Source: an uncultured bacterium
GTDB taxonomy: Bacteria; Omnitrophota; Gorgyraeia; Zapsychrales; Aceulaceae
Length of the DNA stretch: 64,000 bases
NCBI GenBank assembly: GCA_937930175.1
Contig: CALGLP010000006.1
Span: 129,749-193,748 of the forward strand
Reading direction: 5' to 3'
Positions 9,986 through 63,460 of this stretch are shown piece by piece. Numbering within the stretch: position 1 is the first letter of the stretch; every line of letters begins with the position of its first letter. The notes beneath the pieces were generated by a model. It was given only the letters and a program-made list of their open reading frames with translations, was not told where the DNA came from and did not search any database. Position numbers and translations under genes: made by a program.

Positions 9986-10005
9986 GGTGTATCTTTCCGT
10001 AAAAG

Positions 10006-43673: not shown

Positions 43674-43674
43674 A

Positions 43675-46913: not shown

Positions 46914-46924
46914 GAGAACGTTCC

Positions 46925-49587: not shown

Positions 49588-49589
49588 GA

Positions 49590-50053: not shown

Positions 50054-52270
50054 TTGATAAGATTAAGTATGGTCATTGTAGGATTCCTTAAGAAGCATTT
50101 CTTTACTATCCTGGTTCTGTTTGCAGGGTTTATTAATCTACCGTTTTTCCTTAATAAAACTCCGATTTATCATGATACCCTTGCGCACTACATTGCGTTT
50201 TACAACACCTACAACTCTTTTTTCTTTCACGCGGAATTGCCTCGCTGGCTTCCCTATACAAGCTTTGGAGTCTCAAGCGATTTCTTCATCTTTCTGCCAA
50301 CTGATTATTTCTTTATGCTTGTTGGTAGCCTTCTAAAAATAATAAATGTTTTATTTTTATATAAGGCATCTTTCTTTGCAACCCAACTCATCTATCTTCT
50401 AGGAACCTATACTCTTGCAAGAGACATTTTTAAGAGTCGTTTTTCAATTTGGCTTGTTTGTCTATGTGCAGCAGGGAGCCTCATGCTAAGAGATCAGATT
50501 GGCTGGGGATTTTCCTATTTTTACTTGCTACCATGGATGCTTTTTTACTTTCGAAAACTGATTATTGATAAGAATCCTTTTCCTTTCTTCTTTTTATCGG
50601 TCATTTCGCTTCTTGGCTGTCTTCCTTATTTTACTGTTATCGTCTTTTTCCAATTTTTTGTTTTTTTTATTCTATTGTGGATCGTCAATCGGCGACAAAT
50701 TTTCTGCGGCTATAAAGCTCCCTGCAAATCTTCTGTTTTAATTAATATAATTAAGTGTCTTGGTCTCTTTGCTTTTGTCTTTGCATATTTTTATATTTTG
50801 TTCCATTCAAAAGATTTAATACAAATTCTTTCCGTAGGTCGAGATCCAGAATCTTTCGGAGTTTCCTTACAGACATTCTTGAGCTATGGTGGTCATATTG
50901 GTCTTAAGAAATTTATTTTTTTCATTACTCCTATTCATTTGGCAACTTCCTTTTCTGATCTGCATATTTATTTAGGATTAACACTTTGGATTTGCGTTGT
51001 TTATGGAATTTTTCGTAGCAAAGAACCACTATTCGCTGTTTTCTTTGTCCTTGCAGCGGTTGTTTTTCTTTTCTCGTTAGGGAGTTATTTTAGTGTCTTT
51101 TGTTATTATTTTATGCCAGGGATGAAGCTCTTTCGTCATATTGGCTTAACCGCAAATCTTTTGCGTTTTTATGTTCCCATCCTTGCAGGCTTCGGCTTGC
51201 AGGCCTTGCTCAATGATATCGCCAAGCAGAAAGATAATAATCAATCCTATCTTTTTCTATTTTTTGGCGTTTTTATGGTCGCCTTTAGCTTTTTAGTTGT
51301 CTGCCCTGGAGAAAGCTTGTTGTGGGCCGTTGCTTATCCCTGCTTGATCCTTGCGATCGTTTTATTCGCATTCTTTTTTGCGCAATTAAGAAAGACCAAA
51401 TCACCGCATTTGGGCGTTCTTCTTGTTTTATTTTGTGTTCTTGAATTGGTGGTTGCCCAATTCTTGATCGCAGAGCGTGTTCATAAGAATGCGCCTGCGC
51501 AGCCTAAATCGTTAAGCTATGTTTCTAGAAATCTTTATCAGTCCTCACGAAGCTCTAAGCCACCTTCAATCAGGGCAAAAGAACTTAAGGACTATCTTTC
51601 ATTTTTCCATCATCGTTGGGGTTGTGGCATCTATGCCTATTATTACGACTTTCTGCAGTGGGATCCGTGTGATTGCGACCTGCGTTTAGATTTTATGAAC
51701 AAATATGTCTATGATTTCTTAAAAATAACAGGAAATAAGCCGACTTTGCAAGGGTTTACCCTACCTGAGAGCTCCTTTGTCCGCAACGCTGTCGGATGCC
51801 AAACACCAAAGATTCAGCTTATTTCAAAAGTTATTTTTAGCAATGATCCGAAGACAACTCTCAAGGCTATAAAAACAAAGGACGCGATTGTTGTCGCCGG
51901 CGCATCTACTAAGCTTCAAAATACTTGGAAAAACCATGCGAAGTCTGAAGGATACATCGTTGTAAATGATTTTTCATCAAATCGGTTAAAGTTGACCGCT
52001 TTTGTTCCTGAAAGGCAGGGCGCATGGCTGTATTATAAGGACGGGTACCATCCGGATTGGACGGCCAAGATCAACAATCAACGATCAGTTGTTTATCAAG
52101 CAAACATCGCCTTTAAGGCCATTAAGCTCCCGTATGGGCTAAATAGTGTTGAATTGTCTTTTGATAATCGGAAAATGGCGTTATGTTTTTATGTGTTAAT
52201 TTTGGGAGGATTGTTGTTCACGGTGTTCATGCTAGTGAAAATATTTTCAGAGATCTTGTACCCTAATTAA
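50054..52270 (+). CDS. large polytopic membrane protein, GT-C-fold glycosyltransferase-like (GtrC/YfhO/TfpW-like)
   Basis: 738 aa. About 480 aa with at least 12 predicted TM helices, then a roughly 230-aa soluble C-terminal domain. Divergent from the pilus operon, convergent (10 bp) with the sugar operon. TTG start in the track; ATG at 50069 also possible. Confidence 0.45.
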   Translation: MIRLSMVIVGFLKKHFFTILVLFAGFINLPFFLNKTPIYHDTLAHYIAFYNTYNSFFFHAELPRWLPYTSFGVSSDFFIFLPTDYFFMLVGSLLKIINVLFLYKASFFATQLIYLLGTYTLARDIFKSRFSIWLVCLCAAGSLMLRDQIGWGFSYFYLLPWMLFYFRKLIIDKNPFPFFFLSVISLLGCLPYFTVIVFFQFFVFFILLWIVNRRQIFCGYKAPCKSSVLINIIKCLGLFAFVFAYFYILFHSKDLIQILSVGRDPESFGVSLQTFLSYGGHIGLKKFIFFITPIHLATSFSDLHIYLGLTLWICVVYGIFRSKEPLFAVFFVLAAVVFLFSLGSYFSVFCYYFMPGMKLFRHIGLTANLLRFYVPILAGFGLQALLNDIAKQKDNNQSYLFLFFGVFMVAFSFLVVCPGESLLWAVAYPCLILAIVLFAFFFAQLRKTKSPHLGVLLVLFCVLELVVAQFLIAERVHKNAPAQPKSLSYVSRNLYQSSRSSKPPSIRAKELKDYLSFFHHRWGCGIYAYYYDFLQWDPCDCDLRLDFMNKYVYDFLKITGNKPTLQGFTLPESSFVRNAVGCQTPKIQLISKVIFSNDPKTTLKAIKTKDAIVVAGASTKLQNTWKNHAKSEGYIVVNDFSSNRLKLTAFVPERQGAWLYYKDGYHPDWTAKINNQRSVVYQANIAFKAIKLPYGLNSVELSFDNRKMALCFYVLILGGLLFTVFMLVKIFSEILYPN

Positions 52271-52280
52271 GGGATGTTCT

Positions 52281-52979
52281 TTAGCCAAAGATTTTAACTT
52301 TTAGGATCGCCCATAAAGCAGGAATAACAGTATCTACGGCTTTTATGGTTTTTCCTTGTTGATGCGTCCTGGGTGTATAAGAAACGGCTTCTTCGGCAAT
52401 CTTGTATCCCGCCCGACAAAGTTTGCTCACCAATTCAACGGCAGCCGCGTGTCCATTAGAATTAAATCTTGTTGCCTTTAAAATTTTTGTTTTAATCAGA
52501 CTAGATCCTATCACATCTGTAAAATTTCGCCCATAGAATAAATTAATCAACGATGTTGCAATAATGGTTCCAAGCCAATATGGCCTTTCTTTAATTAATG
52601 TAAATATTGGAACATTTTTCCGGTCTAAAAGTCTTGAGCCAAAAACAACATCTAAGCTCTCGCGTTCCATTTTTTCCATCATTTTCTGGACATCTCTCAT
52701 GCTATACTCAAGGTCTGCGCCAAGTCCAGAGAAATACTCCCCTTTAGCCAATTCCATTCCTTCACGGCCCGAATACCCAACTCCCATATTTTTTGAGTGA
52801 AGAATTATCCTGAGGTCCTTGTCATTTTTTAATCCCTGGAGCAATTCTCTGGTGCCATCTGTTGAGCAATTGTCAATAATAATGATCTCTTTATCAATGT
52901 TGACGGCTTTAGCCTCCTCGATGGCTTTAAGAATCGTTGTTTTCTCATTGAAACACGCGATAACCATGGTAAGCTTCAT
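52281..52979 (-). CDS. family 2 glycosyltransferase, polyprenol-phosphate sugar synthase-like (GtrB/Dpm1 catalytic domain)
   Basis: MKLTMVIACFNEKTTI…IIIDNCSTDGT… GT-A motifs. Start moved to Met29 (ATGA overlap with the rfbH stop). Confidence 0.65.
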   Translation of the reverse strand: MKLTMVIACFNEKTTILKAIEEAKAVNIDKEIIIIDNCSTDGTRELLQGLKNDKDLRIILHSKNMGVGYSGREGMELAKGEYFSGLGADLEYSMRDVQKMMEKMERESLDVVFGSRLLDRKNVPIFTLIKERPYWLGTIIATSLINLFYGRNFTDVIGSSLIKTKILKATRFNSNGHAAAVELVSKLCRAGYKIAEEAVSYTPRTHQQGKTIKAVDTVIPALWAILKVKIFG

Positions 52980-54292
52980 TCTATCTCCTTTAGAAAATCG
53001 ATCAAAATCTTTTTTATGTACGACAGCATTCCTTGGGTAAGGCCAGGATAGACTCCTATCCAAAATAAATTATTCATGACAACATCTGTATTGTTCAAAT
53101 TTCTAGCCACCTTATATTTTATATTTTTGTAAGCAGGCTGTTTTAAAAGGTTACCGCCAAACAACATTCTTGTGGCAATCTTATGATCTTCAAAATAATT
53201 AACAATATCTGCCCTCTTAAAAGGCGCACTTTCTCTGACTAAGATAGGAAAACCAAACCAGCTCGGATCCGAATACTTCTCAGCTTCTGGGAGTACAAAA
53301 TAATTTCTATACTTCTTAAGCACTGCGTAAAGAAATTTGAAATTTCTCTTTCTAGCTTCAATAAATCTAGGCAATTTTTTTAGTTGAGCGCATCCGATGG
53401 CTGCTTGCATCTCCGTAATCTTTAAATTATAACCCACATGCGAATAAACGTATTTATGATCATATCCGTAAGGTAAGTCGCCAAACTTTTGGCTAAACCT
53501 TTTTTTGCATGTATCATCATCTCCTGGGTTACACCAGCAATCCCTTCCCCAGTCCCGAAAAGACAGTATTATTTTTCTTAATAGCGAATTGTTAGTCAAA
53601 ACAGCTCCACCCTCTCCCGTCGTTATGTGGTGCGAGGGATAGAAACTACAGGTCGAAATATCGCCAAAGGTTCCAGCATGCTTACCCTTGTACATTGATC
53701 CTAACGCGTCACAGTTGTCTTCAATAAACCATAGGTTATATTTTTTTGCTATTTTAGAAATTAACCCCAGATTCGCGGGATTACCCAACGTATGCGCGAT
53801 GAATATTGCTTTTGTCCTGTTGGTAAGCATCTTTTCTATCAGCTCAGCTTTAATATTATATGTTCCCAGTTTTATGTCTAAAAATACTGGTGTTAAGCGA
53901 TTTTGTAAGATTGGGTTGAGGGTGGTTGGAAAACCGCAGGCTGTGGTAATAACTTCATCTCCAGGCCTCAATCTTCTATCTTTTAACAAAGGAGAAGTCA
54001 GGCTAGAAACCGCCAAAAGATTAGCTGAAGAACCTGAATTTGTTAATAGACAATGCTTAACCCCTAAGAAACTAGCAAGGCCTTTTTCAAATTTATCGGC
54101 GTATCTGCCAGCCGTAAGCCAAAAATCCAGCGAAGCATCAACCAAGTGAATAAGCTCATCTTCGTTATAAACCCGGCCGGCATAAGGAATAGGACTCTTC
54201 CTTTCAAGAAATTGACTTTTTTTTCTTTCGGAGGCGCAATACGTTGCTACTTTTTCTAATATGTCGCGTCTTAATTTTATGCTTTTATTCAT
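52976..54292 (-). CDS. ddhC: CDP-6-deoxy-D-xylo-4-hexulose-3-dehydrase (E1; RfbH/DdhC family, DegT/AHBA-synthase fold)
   Basis: 438 aa. Length and N-terminal pattern (…LVDASLDFWLTAGRYADKFEKGLASFLGVKHCLLTNSGSSANLLAVSSLTSPLL…) match RfbH-type PMP-dependent 3-dehydrases, not ~380-aa aminotransferases. Confidence 0.7.
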   Translation of the reverse strand: MNKSIKLRRDILEKVATYCASERKKSQFLERKSPIPYAGRVYNEDELIHLVDASLDFWLTAGRYADKFEKGLASFLGVKHCLLTNSGSSANLLAVSSLTSPLLKDRRLRPGDEVITTACGFPTTLNPILQNRLTPVFLDIKLGTYNIKAELIEKMLTNRTKAIFIAHTLGNPANLGLISKIAKKYNLWFIEDNCDALGSMYKGKHAGTFGDISTCSFYPSHHITTGEGGAVLTNNSLLRKIILSFRDWGRDCWCNPGDDDTCKKRFSQKFGDLPYGYDHKYVYSHVGYNLKITEMQAAIGCAQLKKLPRFIEARKRNFKFLYAVLKKYRNYFVLPEAEKYSDPSWFGFPILVRESAPFKRADIVNYFEDHKIATRMLFGGNLLKQPAYKNIKYKVARNLNNTDVVMNNLFWIGVYPGLTQGMLSYIKKILIDFLKEIE

Positions 54293-54332
54293 TAATTCTC
54301 GCTATTTAGATCGCAGACATGCAGCCCACACC

Positions 54333-54779
54333 TTAAGCCTTAAATATGTTTTTGTTCCCAAAGGAAAGATGTCTATGTCCAAGATAGTTGAAAGGAGTGG
54401 CTATAACGATACACAAACATTGTGCCAGGATCGGATACAAGCCTAAAAGACTGACCAATAGATACATGAGTACAAAACCAAGCACAGCGCTCCCACTGTA
54501 AACCAAATAACAGCGAAAATATTCTTTGAGATAATTCCCCTTTGTTCTAAAAACAACAAACTTATAGCCAAGATATGCGTTGGTAATAGCTAAAATATTA
54601 GCCGGAATCAATAATAGCAGATAGTTAACACGGGCATGCAGCAACTTGTATAAAATAGCATAAGCTCCTATCCCAAACAATGTGTTCCAGCCGCCAATGA
54701 GCATATAGCGCATCATCCGGCGAATCTCTTTATCGTGTTTTTTATATTTCTCCACTAGCTGAACACCTATTGCGTGCAT
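54333..54779 (-). CDS. GtrA-family membrane protein (polyprenol-phosphate-sugar flippase-like)
   Basis: About 130 aa, 4 TM helices, YMLIGGWNTLFGIGAYAIL…ATPFNYLGHRHLSF GtrA signature. Confidence 0.65.
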   Translation of the reverse strand: MHAIGVQLVEKYKKHDKEIRRMMRYMLIGGWNTLFGIGAYAILYKLLHARVNYLLLLIPANILAITNAYLGYKFVVFRTKGNYLKEYFRCYLVYSGSAVLGFVLMYLLVSLLGLYPILAQCLCIVIATPFNYLGHRHLSFGNKNIFKA

Positions 54780-54848
54780 ATGTCGTATCCGTTCAAATTA
54801 ATTTCTACTTTTTATCCTCAGGGACAAGCATATTGTTTTAAAGAAATA

Positions 54849-55982
54849 CTAAATTATTTCTAATCCGAAATCTCGCAATATCGCAACCTTTGTATTACTA
54901 AAACTCTGCTGTATTATCCCAACCACCTCATCGGAATAACTAGCTGCCATAACAACAACCGCATCAACCGGATCTGATCTAAGAGTGTTAGGTGTTACGA
55001 TCGGTAAATGCGTAGCCGGAGTGTATTTGCCTTGCTTGAAAGGCGCTGAATCGATGACGTATCTGATTTTGTCTGCAATTCTTGTCAAGGCAATGATGGC
55101 TAAGGCCTGATGGCCAGCGCCCCAGATGGCAACACTTTTTTCCTTGAAATGGCTAAGAAACTCATTGATTTCAGATTCAATTTTGATTTGATAATCATAA
55201 AAGTGCATTATGTCGAGCTTTCCTCTTTTTTTTACAACAACGGAAATAACATAATCATCCCGTGTCTGGCTGAAGTCAATGATGTCAAATCCATTAATAG
55301 ACAAAGTTGTCTGTAGCGTTTCTTTGGTAAAGTACAGCAGATGATCGCTAATGAATTCTGAGAAAAGGTTTTTTCGTAATATCATGTCAAAATTCGGCAC
55401 TTCAATTAAGCCTACGGCATCTTCAGTCAAGTTATTATAAATTCCTTTGAGCGCATGATTTGGCGCAGGTATATGCTCCAAAAACATCAATAAAAGAAAG
55501 GCGTCAAAAGGACCCTGATCCAGTTTCTTAGAATTGCTATCGAGATATTCTTTTGATACATTCAGCCCATCTTTCACACACTGCTTAACTGAAAGTTCTG
55601 AATACTCCAATCCGTAAGCCTTGACGTCAAGCGGCTGCAGCAAGGAAAGAAATTCCCCTTTTCCGCATCCGATCTCGATAATCTTTTTCCCCTTTAATGA
55701 ATATTTCTCAATAAAGTTGGCGAATTGTTTGGTTTTAAAATCTTTGATAATTTCCGAAACAGCTGCGGCCCGAATAACCTCTCGGTAATACGAAACAGGA
55801 TCATCACTTAGCTGCACTAAGCCACATCCTGAACATTGACAAACGGTTAAATTGACGCCTGTTTCGTTTTTCAAAGAATTTGCGTCAGGGAAATGTTGAG
55901 CAGCTTTCGGCATGTTTTTGTAGACGAGCAGTGGTTTATTAAAAAATTCTCGACCACAAACTCTGCAAATCGAAATTGACAT
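54849..55982 (-). CDS. NDP-hexose C-methyltransferase (TylCIII-like; zinc-ribbon + SAM MTase + C-methyltransferase C-terminal domain)
   Basis: N-terminal Cys4 zinc ribbon (CRVCG…CQCSGCG), SAM motif IIEIGCGKGEF, and C-terminal Rossmann-like domain (VAIWGAGHQA…YVIDSAPFKQGKYTPATHLPIV…) as in sugar 3-C-methyltransferases. Confidence 0.65.
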   Translation of the reverse strand: MSISICRVCGREFFNKPLLVYKNMPKAAQHFPDANSLKNETGVNLTVCQCSGCGLVQLSDDPVSYYREVIRAAAVSEIIKDFKTKQFANFIEKYSLKGKKIIEIGCGKGEFLSLLQPLDVKAYGLEYSELSVKQCVKDGLNVSKEYLDSNSKKLDQGPFDAFLLLMFLEHIPAPNHALKGIYNNLTEDAVGLIEVPNFDMILRKNLFSEFISDHLLYFTKETLQTTLSINGFDIIDFSQTRDDYVISVVVKKRGKLDIMHFYDYQIKIESEINEFLSHFKEKSVAIWGAGHQALAIIALTRIADKIRYVIDSAPFKQGKYTPATHLPIVTPNTLRSDPVDAVVVMAASYSDEVVGIIQQSFSNTKVAILRDFGLEII

Positions 55983-56001
55983 TAATCGTTCCTATATTTT
56001 T

Positions 56002-57021
56002 TTATCGTAATCTTTCAATTGGAAATCCGTCAATATTGTCTCTGGTGTAATAATCGTTACGATAAATATTACATCTTAAGCATGAATAATTCTCGTGTTT
56101 TCTATCCTTTAGTTGCAATTTTTGGAATTCAAGCCATTGCCTTGAATTCCATATCTGTTGCAAGCTCATATCATCAACGTTTCCCAGATTTGTGCCACCA
56201 ATAAAATCTACACAGCAGGGAGAAACATCACCGTTACTTCGAACCGCCATTGTCGTAAAAGCCATAGGGCATGCAACTCTTTGAGTACTATGTTTCTTTG
56301 AATCATCAAGGGCTTTAATTATGTCGTCTTTGTAATAATCTTTTATAAAATCTACTCCATCTACCTTGATCCAGTTATGTGGTTTTTCAATGTAGACTTC
56401 ATCGGCTACATCGCTATACATTTCCATGAAGGCATCGTTATCTGAGTTATACGCATCAAGCATCTTTGCGGCAACAAAAGGGCTTTTGCTATTAGCACAT
56501 TTTTTTATAGCCTGCAAGGTTTTTAAATTTTCATGTATTTTGTGTATATCGAACTTTGTGCCGGTAATTTCCTCATGCTTATCTTGATAAGGCGAATATA
56601 TCGAGACCCTAATATAATCGAGTTGATACTCAACAAGTTTTTCTGCTACTTTTTCAGTAAGCAGTGAGGCATTTGTTGTCGTTTCAATTCTTTCAGCAAT
56701 GTTTGCCTCCCTTGCCATTTCCAGCATCTCACAGAAATCCGGATTAAGTAAAGGTTCCCCGTACAAGCTGAGCTTTAATACTTTAAGTTTTTTCTCATTC
56801 CAACTTTTTAATTGTTCAATCACCTTTACATAGGTATCAAACGGCATATGTTGACGATTTTCTGTAAAATAATTCTCTTCCTTCAGGCTCTGGAAACACT
56901 GGACGCATTTAAAATTGCATAAACTCGATGGCTCAATCAGCACCGTAAACGGTTTAGATAGCGGTAATACATTTCTGAGATTTTGCCGTTTAGTTGATTT
57001 TAGCTCAGTATATTTGATCAT
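56002..57021 (-). CDS. radical SAM / SPASM-domain enzyme
   Basis: CxxxCxxC (CNFKCVQC) cluster, LYGEPLL and TTN motifs, C-terminal Cys-rich SPASM region (CPMAF…SPCCVDF…CLRC). Confidence 0.75.
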   Translation of the reverse strand: MIKYTELKSTKRQNLRNVLPLSKPFTVLIEPSSLCNFKCVQCFQSLKEENYFTENRQHMPFDTYVKVIEQLKSWNEKKLKVLKLSLYGEPLLNPDFCEMLEMAREANIAERIETTTNASLLTEKVAEKLVEYQLDYIRVSIYSPYQDKHEEITGTKFDIHKIHENLKTLQAIKKCANSKSPFVAAKMLDAYNSDNDAFMEMYSDVADEVYIEKPHNWIKVDGVDFIKDYYKDDIIKALDDSKKHSTQRVACPMAFTTMAVRSNGDVSPCCVDFIGGTNLGNVDDMSLQQIWNSRQWLEFQKLQLKDRKHENYSCLRCNIYRNDYYTRDNIDGFPIERLR

Positions 57022-58067
57022 CTAATAAAATCTTCTTTGTCAAATGCTTCAGTCCAATGAATAGGTAGCGGTTTGCGATAAGTTTTGGACATATATTTAT
57101 TAATAAAATTACGATCTTCTCCAGAAAGGCACAAGCTGCTGTATTCTTGAAAACATTTAATGCTCTGTCCGCGTTTGATGATGTTGGCCAGGCTTTCCTT
57201 AAAAATACTACCGATGGATATAGGGATATATACGCACGGTGTTACATCACCATACTGAGTGATGTGCAATGTCGAATCAACACAACCACAACCTTTGTTC
57301 ATGCCGTAAGACGGGAAAGTGTCGCGATGTAATACAGGATACTGATCATGGGCCTTGCGGAGAAATTCTGCGTCTTCCTTATCGATTAACACTTCATGTT
57401 TCCCTTCCCATGCTCCAGTGGCCCGAGCAATTAACACGTCAATCGTAAAGTCATTCTTCTGAGCGAATTCGGCCATCTGTATTAAGCGATCCGTCTGACA
57501 GTTTTGATGGGTAACAACCGTTTGGACCACCACGCTCAAGCCCGCCTTTTTGGCGTTGAACATGGCATCCATCGCTTTTTGATAGGCTCCGCTGCTGTTG
57601 CGATTTTCGTTATGCCGTTTTTCGTCAAAATCATCCAAACTAATTTTGAGCTTATCCATGCCCATTGCCTTTAAGTGTCTAGCGGCTTTTTTGCTCAAAA
57701 AATGACCATTGGTGCTCATCGTCATGTGGAACTTGTGTGGTTGCAGAGCCAGGATTACCCCATCTAGGTCTTCAAAGATTAATGGTTCTCCGCCAGAGAT
57801 ACAAAACTGACAAAGGCCGAGAGAATGGGCCTCATCGCTAAGTTTTTTCAGGTCAGGTGGGGTTAGTTTTCGTCCTTTTTTTGCAAAACGAGCGGCTGTG
57901 CAGTGCTGACACTTCAGATTGCAAGCATAGCTATAAGCAATATCGATGATCGGTGTGGCAATCCCCTTTTGGTGACGCTCGATAATTTTTATTATCTTGT
58001 CGTAGACCGCAGGTTTTTCCTGTCGCAATTTTTCTCGCTTAGCGTCTTCAATCTCTTTTTCTTGCAC
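57018..58067 (-). CDS. radical SAM / SPASM-domain enzyme (paralog of the upstream gene)
   Basis: CNLKCQHC radical-SAM cluster, SGGEPLI and STNG motifs, C-terminal CGCVD…TPCVY…CLSG SPASM cysteines. 4-bp overlap with the preceding gene. Confidence 0.75.
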   Translation of the reverse strand: MQEKEIEDAKREKLRQEKPAVYDKIIKIIERHQKGIATPIIDIAYSYACNLKCQHCTAARFAKKGRKLTPPDLKKLSDEAHSLGLCQFCISGGEPLIFEDLDGVILALQPHKFHMTMSTNGHFLSKKAARHLKAMGMDKLKISLDDFDEKRHNENRNSSGAYQKAMDAMFNAKKAGLSVVVQTVVTHQNCQTDRLIQMAEFAQKNDFTIDVLIARATGAWEGKHEVLIDKEDAEFLRKAHDQYPVLHRDTFPSYGMNKGCGCVDSTLHITQYGDVTPCVYIPISIGSIFKESLANIIKRGQSIKCFQEYSSLCLSGEDRNFINKYMSKTYRKPLPIHWTEAFDKEDFIR

Positions 58068-58088
58068 AGATCGCCTTTCTAGAATTTT

Positions 58089-59210
58089 TTAAAGAACTGC
58101 ATAACATACAGTTTCATATTCCAGTTTTGTATGATGCCTTAAATAAATTTTATATTCCGGGACCAATTCTTTTATATAAAGCGGGATTTCCCATAAATGT
58201 TTAAAATCATGATAAACGCATATAGCTAGCTTAGGTTTTTGAGTCTTAATAATGCTTTTAGATCCTTTCAGCGCTTGCAGCTCTGCTCCTTCAATATCCA
58301 TTTTAATAAACGTAACTTTTTCATTTTTCAACATCTCATCAAGTGGAACCACATGGCCGCGGGCTTCACCTTCACCAATAGTGCTTTGGGACTGGCTAAT
58401 ACTATAAGCGATGTCGCTTTCACGATCCCATAATCCTAGTTCAAAGATTCTGATCCGGTCGCAATTAGGCATATTTTTTACATTATCGTTCAATAAGCGA
58501 AAGTTGATTGAATTAACCTCAAAGGAGAAAATATTCTCAAATTTTCCGTTTACACGCTTAATAAAATCTTTAACCGTATCCCCATTAAAAGCTCCAACGT
58601 CAATAAAGCTTTCATGATCGGATAGCTTGATTATATTTGCAGGAAAGTACTGATTTTTCTCACAAACATCTGCCATGACGCCAATATCTTCTCCATTGCT
58701 CAAAACTCGATTAACAATAGCATGAAAAACTTTTTTAGATTGTTCATCTGATAAAATCTTGCAAGCTTGGCATAGTTTATCTCCAATTTCTAAGCAATTC
58801 TGATCTAGAAGGAAATTAGAGGTAATAAGATCGTACTTATAGATTTGATTAACCAATGGAAATCCACTTTCGATCAAGTTCTTAAAAACTGGTTCAAAAT
58901 CGCCAATCGTAATAAAGACAGCGCTCCTATTCTTTATTTTTACTAATTCTTGAAAAGAAAGGCATTTTGTACCACAAAAATACTTCCCCCATTTGACGCT
59001 GTCGCTATCGCAGCAATAATCGACTTTTCGCCCAACATATGCATTCCAAGTGTCAACAATACTATTGAAAATTGCGCCGCAACCATAAAACACGATATAA
59101 TCGTAATGTTTTACTAAGTCTTTAATTTCCTGCCGATAGTTTCTTTTTCTTTTTAACAATTCAGCAAAATGGTCGCGTAGTTGTGAATGATCATGCAGCA
59201 TTGTCATCAT
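58089..59210 (-). CDS. FkbM-family methyltransferase with N-terminal extension domain
   Basis: C-terminal FIDVGAFNGDT…FIKMDIEGAE FkbM signature. About 150-aa N-terminal domain of unknown function. Confidence 0.7.
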   Translation of the reverse strand: MMTMLHDHSQLRDHFAELLKRKRNYRQEIKDLVKHYDYIVFYGCGAIFNSIVDTWNAYVGRKVDYCCDSDSVKWGKYFCGTKCLSFQELVKIKNRSAVFITIGDFEPVFKNLIESGFPLVNQIYKYDLITSNFLLDQNCLEIGDKLCQACKILSDEQSKKVFHAIVNRVLSNGEDIGVMADVCEKNQYFPANIIKLSDHESFIDVGAFNGDTVKDFIKRVNGKFENIFSFEVNSINFRLLNDNVKNMPNCDRIRIFELGLWDRESDIAYSISQSQSTIGEGEARGHVVPLDEMLKNEKVTFIKMDIEGAELQALKGSKSIIKTQKPKLAICVYHDFKHLWEIPLYIKELVPEYKIYLRHHTKLEYETVCYAVL

Positions 59211-59673
59211 TCTCCTGATTTTTCACAATCCATTCCAGTAACTCCCAGACACATCCTTCGCCCCCGCGAGCGGAGAGCTTGATTGCTGCAAGCTCTCTGA
59301 CTTCCGAGCTGGCATTTGACGGACAAGCCGAAAATTTCACCGCCTTCATAACATCGACATCGTGCTTAGAATCGCCCAAATAGCAGATAGCATCAGCGCT
59401 CAATCCGGTTTTATCAATGATTTTCTGTAACGCTAGAATTTTATTTTTACACCCGTTATAGAAAAAATCCGGTTTGAAACGTTCTTTGAAAACTAATGTG
59501 ATAGGAGTGTTTTCACCGGTTATTAAGCCAACCAAGAGCTTTTGCCTTTTCATTTCAAATATTGCGTCGATATCTTTAAAGTTAATGGTTTTATATTCAT
59601 TCCCATGGGAGTCTATTGTAGCTTTGCCATCAGTTAATACCCCATCAATATCAAGCAAGATGAGCTTTATCAT
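59191..59673 (-). CDS. HAD-IIIA phosphatase, KdsC-like (3-deoxy-ulosonate phosphate phosphatase family)
   Basis: 160 aa. LILLDIDGVLTDGK motif I and GDSKHD(V)D motif, as in KdsC / KDN-9-P phosphatases. Confidence 0.7.
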   Translation of the reverse strand: MIKLILLDIDGVLTDGKATIDSHGNEYKTINFKDIDAIFEMKRQKLLVGLITGENTPITLVFKERFKPDFFYNGCKNKILALQKIIDKTGLSADAICYLGDSKHDVDVMKAVKFSACPSNASSEVRELAAIKLSARGGEGCVWELLEWIVKNQENDDNAA

Positions 59674-61463
59674 GGTTTTTTTCCTTTGATGATCATATTC
59701 TGCTCAAGCTCTTGAGCTGAAAGATATGGCCACATATCCTCGAGCGGCTTGGAAATCATATTGCCATCAGGTAGTTTCATGGCTTGAACTTTTGGCGCAG
59801 TAATATGGAACTCAGAAACCTTAATGCTGCATAACACAGGGTCGTCTCCATCGAGAGTTTTTGCAATAGTTGTTTTTAATTCTTTATGATTAGTTGCTTG
59901 TTCGTGACGAATACCATAGGCTTGAGCTATCGCTTGTAAATTTGGTAACGTGAGTCCACTGCTTGGCTCTGAACCTACATAAAAACCATTAAACATATTT
60001 TTTTGTGTCGTCATAATGCTGCCATAGCCATTGTTTTCAAGAATAAACATTTTGATCGGCAGTTTCAATCTTACCACAGTTTCTAGCTCTTGAATGTTTA
60101 ATTGAAAAGCGCCATCTCCATTGATGAGAATGGTGCGCTTTCGTTGCTGTGAGATACAAGCGCCGATTGCATAAGGCAGGCCAAATCCCATGGCGCCAAG
60201 GCCAGCGGCATTTCTAATCTTCTGTCCTTTTTTAACGCAAGCGGCTTGATAGGTAACTTCACCAGCCGCTCCAGAACTTTCAGGCGTTATAATATCATCA
60301 GCAGTCAGTTGCTGGAAAAGCATTTCTGTAAAAACGTATAAATTAATATTTTCATCGGAATTGCGATATTCGTCTAAGACCACCGGATACCGTTTCTTAA
60401 GCTGCTGACAATAAGATAACCAGTCGCTGTGGTCAGGTGATTTAATATCTACTTGTTGTTCACACAGTGAGCGCAAGAAGTGACCAGCATCTGCGACAAT
60501 AGGAAGATCGATATGTGCGATTTTATGGATTTCAGCTTCGTCGATATCAACCATGATCTTTTTCGCATTTTTACCAAAGTTCGCGCTGTTGAAGGCGGTG
60601 ATACTAGGGTCAAGGCGACTTCCTAAGATGATCAAAAGATCGCAATTTTGTACGATGAAATTTGCATAGCGACATCCCATGATGCCAGGGCTACCAAAAT
60701 TCAAAGGATGGTTAGAATCTAAGAAATCTATTGTTTTCCAGGTGAGCACCATTGGAATTTGATGCTTTTCCGCAAAGCAGCTCAAGGCTTCTTCTGCCTC
60801 AGCCAGCTTGACCCCGTTTCCCACCAGAATAAGTGGTCGCTTTGCATGATTCAAGAGGTTGATAATTTCGGTTATGGAGAGAGGCGCTGGATCAATAAGC
60901 TCGTTATGCTTATTGGAAAATCCCTGTAACCCTGTTTCGTCAATCATTGTCGCTTGGACATCAAGAGGAATGTCTAGCCACACTGGCCCCATCCTCCCGC
61001 TTGTTGCCAAATGCCAAGCCTTTTCCAAGTGATAGCGAATGTCATTGGGATCTAAGACAGTAATCGCGTATTTCGTGATACACGATATCATGGCAACGAT
61101 ATCAACTTCTTGAGATCCTTTTTGGCGGATACCACTGTTACCTTTAAGATCTGAACGTTTTGCTTGGCCGGAGATAAATATGCAAGGAGTTGAATCAATG
61201 TAAGCCGCTGCCACGCCGGTAATGGTATTGGTGCTCCCCGGGCCTGAGGTAACTAACCCTACCCCTGGAAAACTCGTGAATTGGCCATAGCTTTCTGCTG
61301 CAATGGCGAGCGCTTGTTCATGAAGAAAGCAGGTATATTCCAAGTCCTTGCATCGACCAAGAGAATCATCCAGGTGCATGGCCCCGCCACCGGGTAACAT
61401 AAAAACATGGCGAACTCCCCTGGCAACCAAGAAATTCATTACATAATCTGAAAGTTTTATCAT
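59670..61463 (-). CDS. thiamine-pyrophosphate-dependent acetolactate-synthase-family enzyme (YerE-like sugar C-branching enzyme candidate)
   Basis: 597 aa. Three-domain TPP enzyme (N-terminal PYR domain …MLPGGG…, central domain, C-terminal TPP-binding GDGAFQ…NN motif). Located inside a deoxysugar operon. Confidence 0.6.
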   Translation of the reverse strand: MIKLSDYVMNFLVARGVRHVFMLPGGGAMHLDDSLGRCKDLEYTCFLHEQALAIAAESYGQFTSFPGVGLVTSGPGSTNTITGVAAAYIDSTPCIFISGQAKRSDLKGNSGIRQKGSQEVDIVAMISCITKYAITVLDPNDIRYHLEKAWHLATSGRMGPVWLDIPLDVQATMIDETGLQGFSNKHNELIDPAPLSITEIINLLNHAKRPLILVGNGVKLAEAEEALSCFAEKHQIPMVLTWKTIDFLDSNHPLNFGSPGIMGCRYANFIVQNCDLLIILGSRLDPSITAFNSANFGKNAKKIMVDIDEAEIHKIAHIDLPIVADAGHFLRSLCEQQVDIKSPDHSDWLSYCQQLKKRYPVVLDEYRNSDENINLYVFTEMLFQQLTADDIITPESSGAAGEVTYQAACVKKGQKIRNAAGLGAMGFGLPYAIGACISQQRKRTILINGDGAFQLNIQELETVVRLKLPIKMFILENNGYGSIMTTQKNMFNGFYVGSEPSSGLTLPNLQAIAQAYGIRHEQATNHKELKTTIAKTLDGDDPVLCSIKVSEFHITAPKVQAMKLPDGNMISKPLEDMWPYLSAQELEQNMIIKGKKP

Positions 61464-61504: not shown

Positions 61505-62374
61505 TTATTTATTCACCCGACGTAGTTTCTTTAAGACCGGGATTTCTCTCTCGTAAACGCGTTTAATCCCATCCCCCAGAGAAGACTCTATCAAGCGAAT
61601 ATCGCGCACAAGGATCTCAAATCCGTGAGCGCCTAAAGATGCGGCTTGATCAGACCCCCACATGGAGCGATCAAGGGTAATGTGCCGCTCAATCATGCAA
61701 GCCCCTAGTGATGTGGCGGCCACAGACGTGGCGATGCCCGTTTCATGCCCGGAATACCCAATAGGGACTTTATAGCGATCTTTCAAAGTTTTAATGACCC
61801 GTAGATTTAACTCATCATAATTTGCTGGGTATGTGCTTGTCGTGTGTAAAATGATTAGATTTTCTTTGCCTAAAATCTCCACCGCATGATCAATTTGTTC
61901 AATTATGCTCATGCCCGTAGACAATATGATGGGTTTTTTCTTTGTTCGGTGGTAGCGAAGCAGGTCGTCATCGGTCAGAGTCGCCGAGGCGATCTTGTAG
62001 CAAGGCACGTCAAATTGGTCGATAAAATCAATGGATTTTTCATCCCAGCAGGAGGCAAACCAAGGTATTTTTTTTTCTTGGCAATAGCGATCGATCTCCT
62101 GATAGTCTTCCAGTTCCAGCTCCAAACCATATTTTAAATCACCATTTGTAGGACCGAAATAGTTTTCTCGGGGGAGACTTAACTCTTCAGCCGTATACAC
62201 TTGGTCGATGGTACGTTTTTGAAATTTAACAGCATTGCATCCGGCTTTGATTGCGGCATCGATGAGGTTCTTAGCTATCGCAACATCACCATTGTGGTTA
62301 ATGCCTATTTCGGCGACAATGTAACAGGGATGATTGTCGCCTACGAGGGTATTGCCTATCTTTACCTCTGCCAT
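61505..62374 (-). CDS. NeuB-family PEP-dependent sugar aldolase (N-acetylneuraminate/KDN-9-P synthase-like, no SAF domain)
   Basis: 289 aa. IVAEIGINHNGD…KFQ… TIM-barrel NeuB motifs. Lacks the C-terminal antifreeze-like domain. Confidence 0.7.
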   Translation of the reverse strand: MAEVKIGNTLVGDNHPCYIVAEIGINHNGDVAIAKNLIDAAIKAGCNAVKFQKRTIDQVYTAEELSLPRENYFGPTNGDLKYGLELELEDYQEIDRYCQEKKIPWFASCWDEKSIDFIDQFDVPCYKIASATLTDDDLLRYHRTKKKPIILSTGMSIIEQIDHAVEILGKENLIILHTTSTYPANYDELNLRVIKTLKDRYKVPIGYSGHETGIATSVAATSLGACMIERHITLDRSMWGSDQAASLGAHGFEILVRDIRLIESSLGDGIKRVYEREIPVLKKLRRVNK

Positions 62375-62404: not shown

Positions 62405-63460
62405 TTATCTAGCAACATCATCTTGGGAGCGATAAAAATCTGTCATCTTTCGGATGCCATCTTGCAGGCTAATCCATTGACGCAAACCTAATTCTTTCTC
62501 TGCCAAGCGGGTATCCGGAACATAGCGTTCAACAGGACAGCGCTTGTTTCTTATTTTATTTTGAATTCTTATTTCTATTTTCGGAGAAAAAGTTTTTGCC
62601 ACTAAATTTGCTAAGGTCAAGATCGAACAAGCTTTAGATGACCCAACATTGTATGGCTTATTCGGCTTTCCTAAAAGTAAAATGGTCCAAAGCCAGATCA
62701 TAAGATCAGCCGAATATAGATATGCGCGATAAACAGGTTTGTCGCTTTTTACGTTGATCGGCCCACCTATCAAGGCGTCTCTTACGAAATTCCCGGCGGC
62801 AAAATTAATGTTTAACGGTAATTTGGGTCCTAAGAAAGCGAAACACCTTGCTATTTTAACATTGATACCGAATTCTTGGGCATAATTTGTACAATAAAAT
62901 TCAGAAGCTCTTTTGCTCTTGGCATATGCTGAATGACCATGACGGATGAGCGGAGATCCTTGATAATGCTCTGGGATGCGCAACATGGCAGAGGGTTGCT
63001 TTCCATAAACAGCACCGGAGCTAATGAAAAGAAAGGCATCATTCTGACTGACTTTGGCAAAATCAAGGACTCTTTGTGTGCCGAGTATGTTATTGTTAAA
63101 CAAATCCAATGAAGACGAAGAAGGATTGTTATCTGTTGCCGCATGAACGATGTAGTGATGCTGTCCTTTGGGGAATCGAAAAGAGCGCATATCCCCTTTC
63201 AGAAAGTTTACAGATTTAATTTTATAAAAATGAGGATTATTTCTTTTAAAACGCTCAGGATTTCGTGATAATACAATCGCAGAAGAGTTAAGCTTGAGGC
63301 GTTCGTTGATCCAGACAAAGCTCTCGAGCAACCATGACCCAAAGAATCCAGTCCCGCCTGTAATAAAAAATTTCTTTTTATAAACATTTTTAAATAAAAT
63401 GCGCGTTTTGTTTAGTATGTGATCGAGATCTTCTTGAGGTAGGCTCATGGAATTACGCAT
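62405..63460 (-). CDS. NAD-dependent epimerase/dehydratase-family SDR (candidate NDP-sugar 4-ketoreductase/epimerase)
   Basis: 351 aa. TGGTGFFGSW Rossmann motif, extended SDR. Confidence 0.65.
   Translation of the reverse strand: MRNSMSLPQEDLDHILNKTRILFKNVYKKKFFITGGTGFFGSWLLESFVWINERLKLNSSAIVLSRNPERFKRNNPHFYKIKSVNFLKGDMRSFRFPKGQHHYIVHAATDNNPSSSSLDLFNNNILGTQRVLDFAKVSQNDAFLFISSGAVYGKQPSAMLRIPEHYQGSPLIRHGHSAYAKSKRASEFYCTNYAQEFGINVKIARCFAFLGPKLPLNINFAAGNFVRDALIGGPINVKSDKPVYRAYLYSADLMIWLWTILLLGKPNKPYNVGSSKACSILTLANLVAKTFSPKIEIRIQNKIRNKRCPVERYVPDTRLAEKELGLRQWISLQDGIRKMTDFYRSQDDVAR

Follow-up and report, generated by a model that had tools for sequence, protein, structure and literature searches.

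A tandem pair of twitch-like radical SAM enzymes in a predicted cassette for an acyl-branched CDP-3,6-dideoxyhexose

Two radical SAM genes lie in tandem within a sugar gene cluster of an Omnitrophota bacterium, in a window that is the whole stretch of 64,000 nucleotides analysed in this work. To our knowledge, almost all known radical SAM enzymes with carbohydrate substrates belong to antibiotic pathways. The locus raises the question of whether the two enzymes, here called rSAM_A and rSAM_B, mature a peptide or protein or act on a sugar, and by which chemistry.

Gene organization and distribution of the pair

The features of the locus are listed below with their positions in the window.

50054-52270, plus strand: large polytopic membrane protein, weakly YfhO-like (Pfam YfhO 23 bits, below cut-off)
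52281-52979, minus strand: family-2 glycosyltransferase (GT2) of the polyprenyl-phosphate sugar synthase type, GtrB/PpgS/AglJ-like (Pfam Glycos_transf_2)
52976-54292, minus strand: RfbH, E1-type CDP-6-deoxy-4-hexulose 3-dehydrase (NCBIfam NF011936, 709.6 bits against a cut-off of 423)
54333-54779, minus strand: GtrA-family membrane protein, candidate polyprenyl-phosphate-sugar flippase (Pfam GtrA_DPMS_TM, 66 bits)
54849-55982, minus strand: TylC3-type NDP-sugar C-methyltransferase (Pfam Methyltransf_23, Methyltransf_14, Methyltransf_13)
56002-57021, minus strand: rSAM_A, 339 aa, ATG start (from the open reading frame and sequence)
57018-58067, minus strand: rSAM_B, 349 aa, GTG start (from the open reading frame and sequence)
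58089-59210, minus strand: FkbM-family SAM-dependent methyltransferase, presumed O-methyltransferase (Pfam Methyltransf_21; NCBIfam TIGR01444 above cut-off)
59191-59673, minus strand: KdsC/KDN-9-P-phosphatase-like HAD phosphatase (NCBIfam NF058599 120.5 bits and TIGR01670 103.5 bits, both just below cut-off)
59670-61463, minus strand: YerE/JanthE-like ThDP carboligase (three TPP_enzyme Pfam domains)
61505-62374, minus strand: NeuB-family PEP-condensing ulosonic-acid synthase, short form of 289 aa (Pfam NeuB 264 bits)
62405-63460, minus strand: SDR2, NAD-dependent epimerase/dehydratase family (Pfam Epimerase, GDP_Man_Dehyd)
63453-64000 (approximate, inferred from the source contig), minus strand: 3' part of SDR1, CDP-glucose 4,6-dehydratase-like, which exits the window

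The stop codon of rSAM_B overlaps the start codon of rSAM_A by 4 bp (ATGA). The gap between rSAM_B and the FkbM gene is 21 bp, the gap between rSAM_A and the C-methyltransferase gene is 19 bp, and the intergenic gaps across the operon range from 19 to 69 bp. The sequence-only reading had described a tandem overlapping pair between these two methyltransferase genes, and the coordinates, Pfam domains and flanking gaps all agree with it. Both open reading frames are real genes, each with hundreds of full-length homologues of 65-86% identity. These homologues occur in many phyla, at 65-76% identity for rSAM_A and 65-86% for rSAM_B. The cassette in the window has a lower GC content and a reversed GC skew.

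The cassette with the pair was found in about 50 species-level genomes from more than a dozen bacterial lineages, and 54 distinct genome loci were recovered. The clustered loci (n = 53) consist of 45 of these 54, five metagenome loci and three further genome loci; many of the contigs are truncated, which affects the gene counts. rSAM_A was called in 50 clustered loci and rSAM_B in 43. The TPP-enzyme gene was called in 40, FkbM in 39, NeuB in 29, and RfbH and the GtrB-like GT2 in 26 each, with FkbM flanking the radical SAM block in 39/53. The pair is thus co-inherited with nucleotide-sugar genes, which upholds its earlier placement in a sugar pathway. Co-occurrence with the C-methyltransferase across genomes is also seen (29/53 loci). 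Thirteen loci carry a divergent C-methyltransferase-like gene (f13), and in 11 of these the TylC3-type gene is missing.

The source contig carries an identical cassette, and Nitrospirota and Parabacteroides carry related ones. The 4-bp overlap of rSAM_B and rSAM_A is repeated across phyla. Some loci encode a third enzyme, A', a paralogue of rSAM_A that is 40-42% identical to it. Other cassettes also carry a B12-type radical SAM gene and the family f19, and the total of radical SAM genes elsewhere is three to five.

Proteins of Lentisphaeria, Nitrospirota and Riflebacteria share 77-83% identity with rSAM_B, whereas AlaS of the host is only 54-74% identical to AlaS of other Omnitrophota. Since the identity of rSAM_B across phyla exceeds that of AlaS within Omnitrophota, and in view of the GC content and GC skew given above, the cassette appears to be horizontally mobile with the pair under strong constraint. 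Carriers of the pair include not only many strict anaerobes but also Ca. Accumulibacter, Sulfuricella, Thermoleophilia and a Pseudomonadales MAG. Radical SAM enzymes such as BioB, LipA, MoaA and PqqE work in aerobes. On both points, the suggestion that the pair implies an obligately anaerobic host is not supported.

Domain architecture and relatives of the two enzymes

Both proteins belong to the radical SAM superfamily, with the CxxxCxxC and GEPL-type motifs invariant among 23 rSAM_A and 21 rSAM_B homologues. The AF2 models of both exhibit a beta/alpha barrel with moderate confidence (pLDDT 68 and 76). The Pfam Radical_SAM model (threshold 29.5 bits) scored 60.3 bits for rSAM_A and 84.2 bits for rSAM_B, and the Pfam SPASM model (threshold 21.5 bits) scored 55.5 and 26.7 bits. 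rSAM_A has the motifs C35NFKC39VQC42, YGEPL and TTNAS, and rSAM_B has C49NLKC53QHC56, SGGEPL and STNG. The earlier motif assignment thus holds in both enzymes for CxxxCxxC, but its GGEPL and TNG are found in rSAM_B only. The two are paralogs, as had been said, at the superfamily level only; they are not close (BLASTP 21% identity over ~160 N-terminal residues, E=6e-4).

A full SPASM domain binds two auxiliary [4Fe-4S] clusters through a seven-Cys pattern (CX9-15GX4C ... CX2CX5CX3C ... C), whereas the twitch domain of BtrN-like enzymes is a truncated SPASM with four Cys ligands to one auxiliary cluster. The invariant C-terminal Cys of rSAM_A are C251, C269, C270, C314 and C317 (23 homologues), so that only CX12GX4C plus CX2C is kept, and C251, C269, C314 and C317 align with all four Cys of the C-terminal domain of BtrN. 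In rSAM_B the invariant Cys of this domain are C260, C278 and C313, with C262 conserved at ~90% (21 homologues), so that CX12GX4C and one to two further Cys are kept. With only 4-5 C-terminal Cys per enzyme that are invariant or, for C262, nearly so, each enzyme, rSAM_B less clearly than rSAM_A, looks like a twitch-type protein with one auxiliary cluster rather than a full SPASM enzyme. At the sequence level, a full SPASM domain was rejected for both, the seven-Cys pattern being absent. The Pfam SPASM model matches both enzymes because it covers the first half that is shared with twitch. The former description as two SPASM enzymes with C-terminal Cys clusters is right in that both pass the Pfam model and have conserved Cys, but the sets are too small for the seven-Cys pattern. 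Outside the C-terminal domain, C97 of rSAM_A is conserved at ~90% and the barrel residues C86 and C190 of rSAM_B are invariant.

The top solved-structure match of rSAM_A is BtrN (phmmer 4e-9; profile 7.5e-13), the 2-deoxy-scyllo-inosamine dehydrogenase of butirosin biosynthesis and founding twitch radical SAM enzyme. Both halves of BtrN align with rSAM_A, with its CX12GX4C...CX2C falling on the four Cys given above, and both enzymes have a carbohydrate-type small-molecule context with no peptide. They differ in that the identity is ~18-20%, rSAM_A is ~90 aa longer with the extra invariant C270, and rSAM_A lies in a CDP-deoxyhexose surface-glycan operon whereas BtrN lies in an aminoglycoside cluster. 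Orthology to BtrN was rejected on this identity, on E=4e-9 and on the CDP-hexose, NeuB and ThDP neighbours. The analogy with BtrN that had been drawn is nevertheless the best available for rSAM_A. Half of the six distinct proteins matched by the sequence of rSAM_A are sugar or cyclitol enzymes (BtrN, DesII, and SpeY). Its Foldseek matches are SuiB, BtrN, ChlB, anSME, DesII, BlsE, and SpeY, and the match lists of the pair are generic for SPASM/twitch enzymes (TM 0.5-0.6).

The best PDB matches of rSAM_B are MoaA, SkfB, SuiB, BlsE, and AbmM. MoaA, the GTP 3',8-cyclase, is its best sequence match in the core barrel (2.5e-11; profile 3.4e-16), and its C-terminal cluster has few Cys ligands as in rSAM_B. 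However, the C-terminal domains are unalignable, molybdopterin gene context is absent here, and the identity is remote (~18-20%). MoaA identity was rejected, as TIGR02666 scored 98.8 bits for rSAM_B and 57.3 bits for rSAM_A against a cut-off of 284. DesII acts on TDP-4-amino-4,6-dideoxyglucose made by its partner aminotransferase DesI. DesII identity was rejected at E=4.7e-5 over the core barrel only; the DegT-family neighbour is RfbH (709 bits), not DesI (TIGR04427, 97.6 bits against a cut-off of 650). The analogy with DesII that had accompanied that with BtrN is accordingly weak.

SpeY (a twitch dehydrogenase), DesII, BlsE and AbmM are matched by rSAM_A, rSAM_B or both in sequence or structure, and HygY and NeoN are carbohydrate-acting radical SAM epimerases. 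These precedents cover oxidation, epimerisation, deamination or decarboxylation on sugars. They differ from the pair in that they come from antibiotic pathways of actinomycetes or bacilli, and the similarity is at the superfamily level (E 1e-4 to 1e-10). We know of no carbohydrate-acting radical SAM enzymes that form a fixed pair or lie in a Gtr/YfhO-type surface-glycan cassette. The best NCBIfam match of rSAM_A is 'tungsten cofactor oxidoreductase maturase' (105 bits, far below the cut-off of 380). No NCBIfam model is above its cut-off for rSAM_B, where the best matches are NirJ2, AhbD and MoaA (~100 bits against 284-500).

Neighbouring genes and the predicted sugar pathway

Judged by family matches, the neighbours form a YerE-type cassette for an acyl-branched CDP-3,6-dideoxyhexose, in which a NeuB-type enzyme would supply the keto acid and Gtr/YfhO-type proteins would export the sugar. 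This context is absent from the sequence-only reading. The product of RfbH is predicted to be CDP-4-keto-3,6-dideoxyglucose. Among the genes for this compound, RfbH and a glucose-1-phosphate cytidylyltransferase are above cut-off; the latter lies just past SDR1, outside the window on the same contig (TIGR02623, 415 bits against 300). The 4,6-dehydratase SDR1 is below cut-off (TIGR02622 as best match, 210 bits against 278). The NeuB-family synthase is without a SAF domain, scores below the cut-offs of the NCBIfam NeuB and PseI models, and has a NeuB-like protein of 290 aa (6ncs) as its best PDB match. Firmicutes loci encode the HAD phosphatase as a fusion with a SIS sugar-phosphate isomerase domain, and SIS also occurs as a gene of its own in other loci. 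The TylC3-type protein is made up of Zn-ribbon, class I methyltransferase and C-methyltransferase C-terminal domains. The best NCBIfam matches of the GT2 are AglJ, PpgS and dolichyl-P hexose transferase, all below cut-off. The gene of the YfhO-like protein is convergent with the operon, and we infer that this protein is the candidate periplasmic transferase of a Gtr-like three-component system.

The ThDP carboligase best matches JanthE (8RPH, 1.1e-107, against 7.5e-84 for the best AHAS). JanthE is a YerE-like enzyme (PMC12188165), and by this match the carboligase is proposed to be YerE-like and to join an acyl branch to a keto-sugar. A published unifying scheme derives acyl-branched sugars from acceptor genes, an aldolase that forms the keto acid, a YerE-like enzyme and a reductase, with a methyltransferase as an option (PMC9306805). 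The cassette shares with the pathways of yersiniose, erwiniose, caryophyllose, and gastriose the same acceptor-forming genes (cytidylyltransferase, 4,6-dehydratase, and RfbH), the ThDP enzyme, an SDR, SAM methyltransferases, and a candidate maker of a functionalised α-keto acid (PMC9306805). SDR2, for which no NCBIfam equivalog was found, is a candidate YerF-like ketoreductase by analogy with this scheme (PMC9306805). The cassette differs in three ways. No pyruvate aldolase gene is present in it, and the keto acid could come from NeuB-type PEP condensation and the KdsC-like phosphatase (with the SIS isomerase elsewhere) in place of the aldolase. No E3 reductase gene was seen in the cassette on the source contig. 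The two radical SAM enzymes (three to five elsewhere) and the TylC3-type C-methyltransferase are absent from the published scheme, to which the pair would be a new addition. The pair and FkbM and C-methyltransferase genes also occur in Syntrophus buswellii (L023) and two Lachnospiraceae loci (L038 and L046) with neither TPP nor NeuB within 10 kb, so the link with the acyl branch is frequent, not obligatory.

Substrate and chemistry of the pair

That the pair cross-links or epimerises a ribosomal peptide encoded nearby is extremely improbable, although Pfam SPASM is present and SuiB, SkfB and ChlB are among the structural neighbours. The operon gaps leave no room for a peptide gene, and no small open reading frame within 6 kb is common to more than 3 of the 44 non-redundant loci with close orthologues. 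No RRE or PqqD domain was found in the pair by Pfam (the N-terminal extensions are only ~25-40 aa), nor was such a gene found in the cassette. The RiPP-maturase NCBIfam models scored 35-81 bits against cut-offs of 265-725, PqqE too being far below its cut-off, and the neighbours are invariably sugar genes. Hardly more credible is a role as anSME or another protein or cofactor maturase, for instance for a pathway enzyme. anSME does match the C-terminal ~65 residues of rSAM_A (E ~1e-6), and the tungsten cofactor maturase is its best NCBIfam match. However, that score is far below cut-off, the anSME models of NCBIfam also fall far short of theirs and do not rank among the top matches, the 7-8 Cys two-cluster SPASM motif is absent, and no sulfatase or tungstoenzyme gene is present in any conserved neighbourhood. 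Both readings are largely refuted, in line with the earlier claim that the pair has no precursor peptide and probably acts on a sugar.

We consider it likely that the pair consists of two different, translationally coupled twitch-type radical SAM enzymes that tailor a small-molecule sugar rather than a peptide or protein. Sugar tailoring as such is well supported. The pair lies in fixed B-then-A order within a mobile cassette that is predicted to make an acyl-branched, C- and O-methylated CDP-3,6-dideoxyhexose. Redox, epimerisation or deoxygenation on the sugar, as formerly proposed, would be possible reactions, and among these we favour BtrN-like alcohol oxidation by rSAM_A.

In the proposed route, the gene functions of the first three steps come from family matches and the step order is inferred. 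The cytidylyltransferase, the 4,6-dehydratase and RfbH would convert glucose-1-phosphate to CDP-4-keto-3,6-dideoxyglucose. The NeuB-like synthase and the KdsC-like phosphatase (elsewhere with the SIS isomerase) would yield a KDO/KDN-like 3-deoxy-2-ulosonic acid, which the YerE/JanthE-like enzyme would decarboxylate and ligate to the C4 ketone. The SDR, the TylC3-type C-methyltransferase and the FkbM methyltransferase would complete the sugar, and the polyprenyl-phosphate GT2, GtrA and the YfhO-like protein would place it on a surface glycan. rSAM_A may abstract a carbinol hydrogen from the sugar or its polyol branch and pass an electron to its BtrN-like auxiliary cluster, giving a ketone by BtrN/SpeY-type dehydrogenation. 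This ketone could serve the enolate-type C-methyltransferase encoded 19 bp downstream. rSAM_B may perform a second radical step on the same intermediate, which could be epimerisation, dehydration or rearrangement.

A dehydrogenase role leaves the conservation of costly radical SAM enzymes unexplained, since ordinary SDRs could oxidise alcohols. One or both enzymes may instead be sugar epimerases of the HygY/NeoN/AviX12 kind, which is possible but rather unlikely. The 5'-deoxyadenosyl radical would take a hydrogen from an unactivated stereocentre and a conserved Cys would return one to the opposite face, so that at least one centre in the polyol branch or the ring is inverted. The twitch architecture is the same as in the dehydrogenase reading, and in HygY the choice between epimerase and dehydrogenase activity depends on one Cys. 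The Cys of rSAM_A beyond the four aligned with BtrN (C270, and C97 at ~90%) would fit a hydrogen-atom donor equally well, C86 and C190 of rSAM_B are further candidates, and A' in some loci fits serial action on similar polyol centres. However, the only epimerase among the structural matches is EpeE, a peptide epimerase that ranks below BtrN, SuiB and anSME, and the AF2 model of rSAM_A is unreliable around C270 (pLDDT <50).

Radical deoxygenation, rearrangement or C-C bond formation beyond the reach of ordinary enzymes is improbable. One example would be AprD4-type dehydration of a 1,2-diol with subsequent reduction by an SDR; another would be closure of the KDO-like branch onto the ring, which would give a higher sugar of carbocyclic or bicyclic form. 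The very strong sequence constraint across phyla, the radical SAM-rich cassettes (A', the B12-type enzyme, and f19), the SDR gene directly after rSAM_A in Firmicutes and SDR2 in the window point to such chemistry. So does rSAM_B, which has only three invariant C-terminal Cys plus one at ~90% and is most like MoaA, an enzyme that makes a C-C bond and binds its substrate through a 3-Cys cluster. However, the MoaA similarity is limited to the core barrel (residues 30-220), and no specific homology to AprD4, PolH/NikJ or TunB emerged. The substrate could also be the keto acid in free form instead of the CDP-sugar, and we regard as doubtful that the pair acts upstream on a free sugar phosphate or the ulosonic acid donor from the NeuB-like and HAD enzymes. 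The usual place of the pair is immediately behind the NeuB-TPP-HAD(-FkbM) block, and the cassette has no CMP-ulosonate synthetase, so the NeuB product would be an intermediate. However, the pair is kept in L023, L038 and L046, and in many loci rSAM_A is followed directly by the polyprenyl-phosphate GT2 or the NDP-sugar C-methyltransferase.

Two families lacking an NCBIfam equivalog form a fixed, highly constrained pair in a predicted surface-glycan deoxysugar pathway. If characterised, the pair would add a radical step to the ThDP-based scheme for branched bacterial sugars, would predict that poorly known bacteria, most of them anaerobic, carry a new rare sugar on their surface, and would make new twitch-type enzymes available to biocatalysis and to studies of mechanism. 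It is unlikely, by our estimate, that the pair (with A' in some lineages) is the first radical SAM machinery dedicated to nucleotide sugars of cell-surface glycans with a chemistry unprecedented there. Such chemistry could be radical C-C bond formation, rearrangement or deoxygenation by which a KDO-like acyl branch on the CDP-3,6-dideoxyhexose would become a carbocyclic, bicyclic or other new higher sugar. If true, Omnitrophota, Lentisphaerae, Syntrophales, gut Lachnospiraceae, and others would display a new sugar. The cultured carriers Syntrophus buswellii DM-2, Thiorhodococcus mannitoliphagus DSM 18266 and Lachnospiraceae isolates make the role of the pair directly testable; gut Lachnospiraceae and Victivallis carry it as well.

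The two radical SAM genes and their enzyme class

Both minus-strand ORFs described in the sequence-only reading were seen in the ORF list and in the sequence. The pair and its flanking genes are as follows.

58089-59210, FkbM methyltransferase, 21 bp from the radical SAM pair
57018-58067, minus strand, rSAM_B, 349 aa, GTG start
56002-57021, minus strand, rSAM_A, 339 aa
54849-55982, C-methyltransferase of the TylC3 type, 19 bp from the radical SAM pair

The rSAM_B and rSAM_A genes overlap by 4 bp (ATGA), and both proteins passed the Radical_SAM and SPASM models of Pfam. Full-length homologues at 65-86% identity number in the hundreds for each, so both are real and constrained genes. They had been described as paralogs. 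However, BLASTP aligned only their N-terminal ~160 residues at 21% identity (E=6e-4), so they represent two families instead of recent paralogues, and the recent duplication of one gene as the origin of the pair is ruled out. The GGEPL and TNG motifs that had been attributed to both are present in rSAM_B, whereas rSAM_A has YGEPL and TNA.

The C-terminal cysteine clusters of the same description are present in the homologue alignments, but their cysteines are few. Among 23 rSAM_A homologues, the invariant cysteines besides CxxxCxxC are C251, C269, C270, C314, and C317, and C97 is kept in ~90%. Among 21 rSAM_B homologues, they are C86, C190, C260, C278, and C313; C262 is kept in ~90% and C305 is not conserved. 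Both proteins exhibit the CX12GX4C start of the SPASM motif, and the CX2CX5CX3C block is absent from both alignments. Judged by these motifs, both look like twitch-type enzymes of uncharacterised families with one auxiliary cluster each, and rSAM_B may have a three-cysteine site.

The top solved-structure match of rSAM_A is BtrN (4e-9 by sequence, 7.5e-13 by profile). All four cysteines of the BtrN C-terminal domain, which serve as the ligands of its single auxiliary cluster, align with C251, C269, C314, and C317. The nearest match of rSAM_B is MoaA, in the barrel region (2.5e-11 by sequence, 3.4e-16 by profile), followed by SkfB, SuiB, BlsE, and AbmM. No NCBIfam model reached its cut-off for either protein (top score ~105 bits against cut-offs of 284-650), and membership in anSME, PqqE, MoaA, NirJ/AhbD, or viperin was rejected since all scores are far under cut-off. 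The AF2 models are of moderate confidence (pLDDT 68 and 76), and a Foldseek search of both against the PDB returned only generic SPASM/twitch neighbours (TM 0.5-0.6) that do not resolve function.

The profile search of 1.84 billion representatives identified 479 clusters at E<=1e-30, of which only 3-4 reach the scores seen within the orthologous group. The context of the distant rSAM_A homologues (31-32%) was examined at one locus, L059. The homologue there (9586-10638, 32%) has the same Radical_SAM and SPASM architecture and lies between rhomboid/DnaK/DnaJ genes and a Uma2-family gene, which is not a glycan locus. The sugar context is thus limited to the orthologous group (at least 49% identity), and the wider family probably has other substrates.

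Conserved operon, carriers, and variants

The same operon was found in the exact contig (GCA_036722365.1) and two other assemblies, where it reaches past the window. Its order is Glc-1-P cytidylyltransferase, SDR1 (CDP-glucose 4,6-dehydratase-like), SDR2 (candidate reductase), NeuB-like synthase, TPP enzyme, KdsC-like HAD phosphatase, FkbM, rSAM_B, rSAM_A, C-methyltransferase, GtrA, RfbH, and GT2, then a convergent YfhO-like membrane protein. Related cassettes were found in one Nitrospirota genome and one Parabacteroides-like contig.

A scan of one genome per species identified 54 distinct loci. The carriers are Omnitrophota, Nitrospirota, Lentisphaeria/Victivallales, Geobacter, and Syntrophales including the isolate Syntrophus buswellii DM-2; Elusimicrobia, Holophagales, Ca. 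Accumulibacter, Riflebacteria, and Thermoleophilia; Lachnospiraceae and Oscillospiraceae, isolates included; and Thiorhodococcus mannitoliphagus DSM 18266, Sulfuricella, and a Pseudomonadales MAG. The window proteins were placed on the loci by tblastn and all ORFs were clustered for 53 loci, which comprise 45 close-orthologue loci of the scan, three that were contributed by metagenome look-ups (L004, L006, and the contig of the window itself), and others.

Table. Genes found among the 53 clustered loci. The counts are minimum values, as many of the contigs are truncated.
rSAM_A: 50/53
rSAM_B: 43/53
TPP enzyme: 40/53
FkbM methyltransferase (up to four tandem copies): 39/53
NeuB-like synthase: 29/53
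C-methyltransferase: 29/53
GtrB-like GT2: 26/53
RfbH: 26/53
Divergent C-methyltransferase-like protein (f13): 13/53

The order of rSAM_B then rSAM_A and the 4-bp overlap are seen repeatedly across phyla. The loci L023 (Syntrophus buswellii), L038 (Lachnospiraceae), and L046 exhibit the pair with FkbM and C-methyltransferase genes, but no TPP or NeuB gene in the 10-kb flank. In 11 of its 13 loci, f13 occurs without a C-methyltransferase call.

Three cassette architectures were identified. Architecture II has an inserted paralogue, A', that is 40-42% identical to rSAM_A, and often a B12-type radical SAM gene as well. Three tandem radical SAM genes in the order B, A', A are seen at L006 7939-13843 and also in L013, L014, L019, L025, L028-L031, and L037; the B12-binding protein often added in this variant has ~545 aa, and f13 is in place of the TylC3-type methyltransferase. 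In the Firmicutes architecture, the additions are a carbamoyltransferase, more radical-SAM-like genes, and a HAD-SIS fusion. The fusion joins the KdsC-like HAD to a SIS_2 sugar-phosphate isomerase domain beside the NeuB-like gene (L035 4841-5887) and occurs in six further Firmicutes loci (L040, L044, L047, L049, L050, and L055). The Nitrospirota locus has a stand-alone SIS_2 gene (L004 2065-2649). At L023 607-8917 and L038 776-9685, the pair is surrounded by as many as four FkbM-type methyltransferases in tandem, together with an O-carbamoyltransferase, a GDSL-like protein, and additional genes of radical-SAM-like type. The tandem methyltransferases and the O-carbamoyltransferase suggest that the sugar of these two loci is heavily methylated and carbamoylated.

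The sequence-only reading had claimed that no precursor peptide accompanies the pair, and a conserved small ORF was set beforehand as the refuting observation. The regions within 6 kb of rSAM_A in 44 non-redundant loci contain 325 intergenic ORFs of 20-109 aa, which were clustered. None of them is widely shared among these loci, and the claim stands. A RiPP system was rejected; the widest cluster covers three Lachnospiraceae-type loci and encodes a protein of ~105 aa. The intergenic gaps of the operon are 19-69 bp, no PqqD/RRE domain was detected by Pfam in either enzyme, and their N-terminal extensions are too short for one in the models. A conserved ORF of ~105-130 aa with no Pfam match is confined to four Lachnospiraceae/Eubacterium loci (L038 9591-9989, L039 7410-7724, L041 9669-9989, and L046 9669-9992), where it follows the carbamoyltransferase and lies directly upstream of rSAM_A (three loci) or rSAM_B (L039). 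Its length and its restricted distribution rule it out as a general precursor peptide. A 59-aa ORF between the TPP and FkbM genes of L004, which has no Pfam match and is not conserved elsewhere, was also rejected. An anaerobic sulfatase-maturing enzyme had been named as the alternative. This identity is not borne out, given NCBIfam scores far under cut-off, similarity of anSME to rSAM_A over the last ~65 residues only, and no sulfatase gene in any conserved neighbourhood of the pair.

Predicted sugar product and reaction of the pair

The cytidylyltransferase (TIGR02623, 415 bits) and RfbH (NF011936, 709 bits) score above cut-off, and the top match of SDR1 is CDP-glucose 4,6-dehydratase, under cut-off. 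Together, these matches indicate CDP-4-keto-3,6-dideoxyglucose as the predicted product. RfbH (E1) is assigned at equivalog level at 52976-54292 of the window. No gene for an E3-type [2Fe-2S]/FAD reductase (RfbI/AscD/DdhD) was found in the cassette of the window operon or its own contig.

The top PDB match of the TPP enzyme is 8RPH (1.1e-107), far above acetolactate synthases. This structure is that of JanthE, which belongs to the YerE-like carboligases and couples α-keto-acid donors with ketones (PMC12188165). A unifying scheme has been proposed and partly tested for yersiniose, erwiniose, caryophyllose, and gastriose; it combines CDP-4-keto-3,6-dideoxyglucose as the acceptor with a functionalised α-keto acid made by an aldolase, and involves a YerE-like enzyme and a reductase, in some cases also a SAM methyltransferase (PMC9306805). 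Both papers cover the ThDP part only. The scheme does not contain radical SAM enzymes, which are the new element of this cassette. Here, the NeuB-family synthase and the KdsC/KDN-9-P-phosphatase-like HAD would together provide the keto acid. Since a SIS isomerase joins these two in other loci, we infer a trio analogous to the KDO route. The NeuB product is probably an intermediate and not the end product because no CMP-ulosonate synthetase was found in the cassette. A Gtr-type route of delivery to a surface glycan is suggested by GT2, which resembles polyprenyl-P sugar synthases, together with GtrA and the YfhO-like protein.

The pair is established as radical SAM proteins with a small auxiliary cysteine set and coupled translation, co-inherited with sugar genes and with no peptide gene. 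It is likely a sugar-tailoring twitch pair within an acyl-branched CDP-sugar cassette, and any single reaction can be proposed only tentatively. The hydrogen abstracted by the pair would be one of the CDP-sugar or of its polyol branch. In the favoured reading, rSAM_A would oxidise a secondary alcohol to a ketone as BtrN and SpeY do, with the auxiliary cluster as the electron sink; this ketone would be the carbonyl required by the enolate-type C-methyltransferase encoded immediately downstream. A second radical step would be performed by rSAM_B.

The extra invariant cysteines and the serial paralogues are in favour of epimerisation by one or both enzymes, which we consider rather unlikely. Diol dehydration, rearrangement, or cyclisation is favoured by the strong sequence constraint, the neighbouring SDRs, and the few-cysteine site of MoaA-like type, and these reactions are given a low probability. 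It is likewise improbable that the pair acts on the free keto acid instead of the CDP-sugar.

Carbohydrate-tailoring twitch radical SAM enzymes are already known. Literature searches for radical SAM enzymes associated with CDP-sugars, O-antigens, or FkbM gave no description of this pair. What is new is a conserved pair from two uncharacterised families in a YerE-type, NeuB-fed, Gtr-exported surface-sugar cassette. The pair is testable because cultured carriers exist.

Probable horizontal spread and the host

The window is chromosomal and carries the genes of AlaS, SecDF, Mfd, FtsH, PilB, TrpE, GatA/B, and HisD. The named top matches of the housekeeping protein AlaS (34548-37181) are all from Candidatus Omnitrophota at 54-74% identity, whereas rSAM_B shares 77-83% identity with proteins from Lentisphaeria, Nitrospirota, and Riflebacteria. 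By these identities, the pair is more conserved between phyla than this core gene is within its phylum. The GC content of the cassette (50001-60000) is 0.37-0.40 compared to 0.42-0.46 for 1-50000, and the GC skew, positive up to ~50 kb, is negative beyond it even though the minus strand still holds most genes. Taken together, the identities, GC content, and GC skew indicate that the cassette has spread horizontally under strong purifying selection.

Radical SAM enzymes also function in aerobes. The taxonomic spread consists mostly of anaerobes, and some of the carriers are not strict ones. Hence, the obligately anaerobic host that had been deduced from the pair cannot be inferred from it.

A type IV pilus or type II secretion-like cluster (42417-49623) adjoins the sugar operon and includes a PilB-like ATPase (43675-45390), a secretin (~45387-46913), and a PilM_2-like protein (48001-49623). 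For the Mfd-like ORF (23960-25843, 627 aa), the match is confined to positions 283-822 of the 907 in the Mfd model; the protein may be a shorter version, or the gene may be split.
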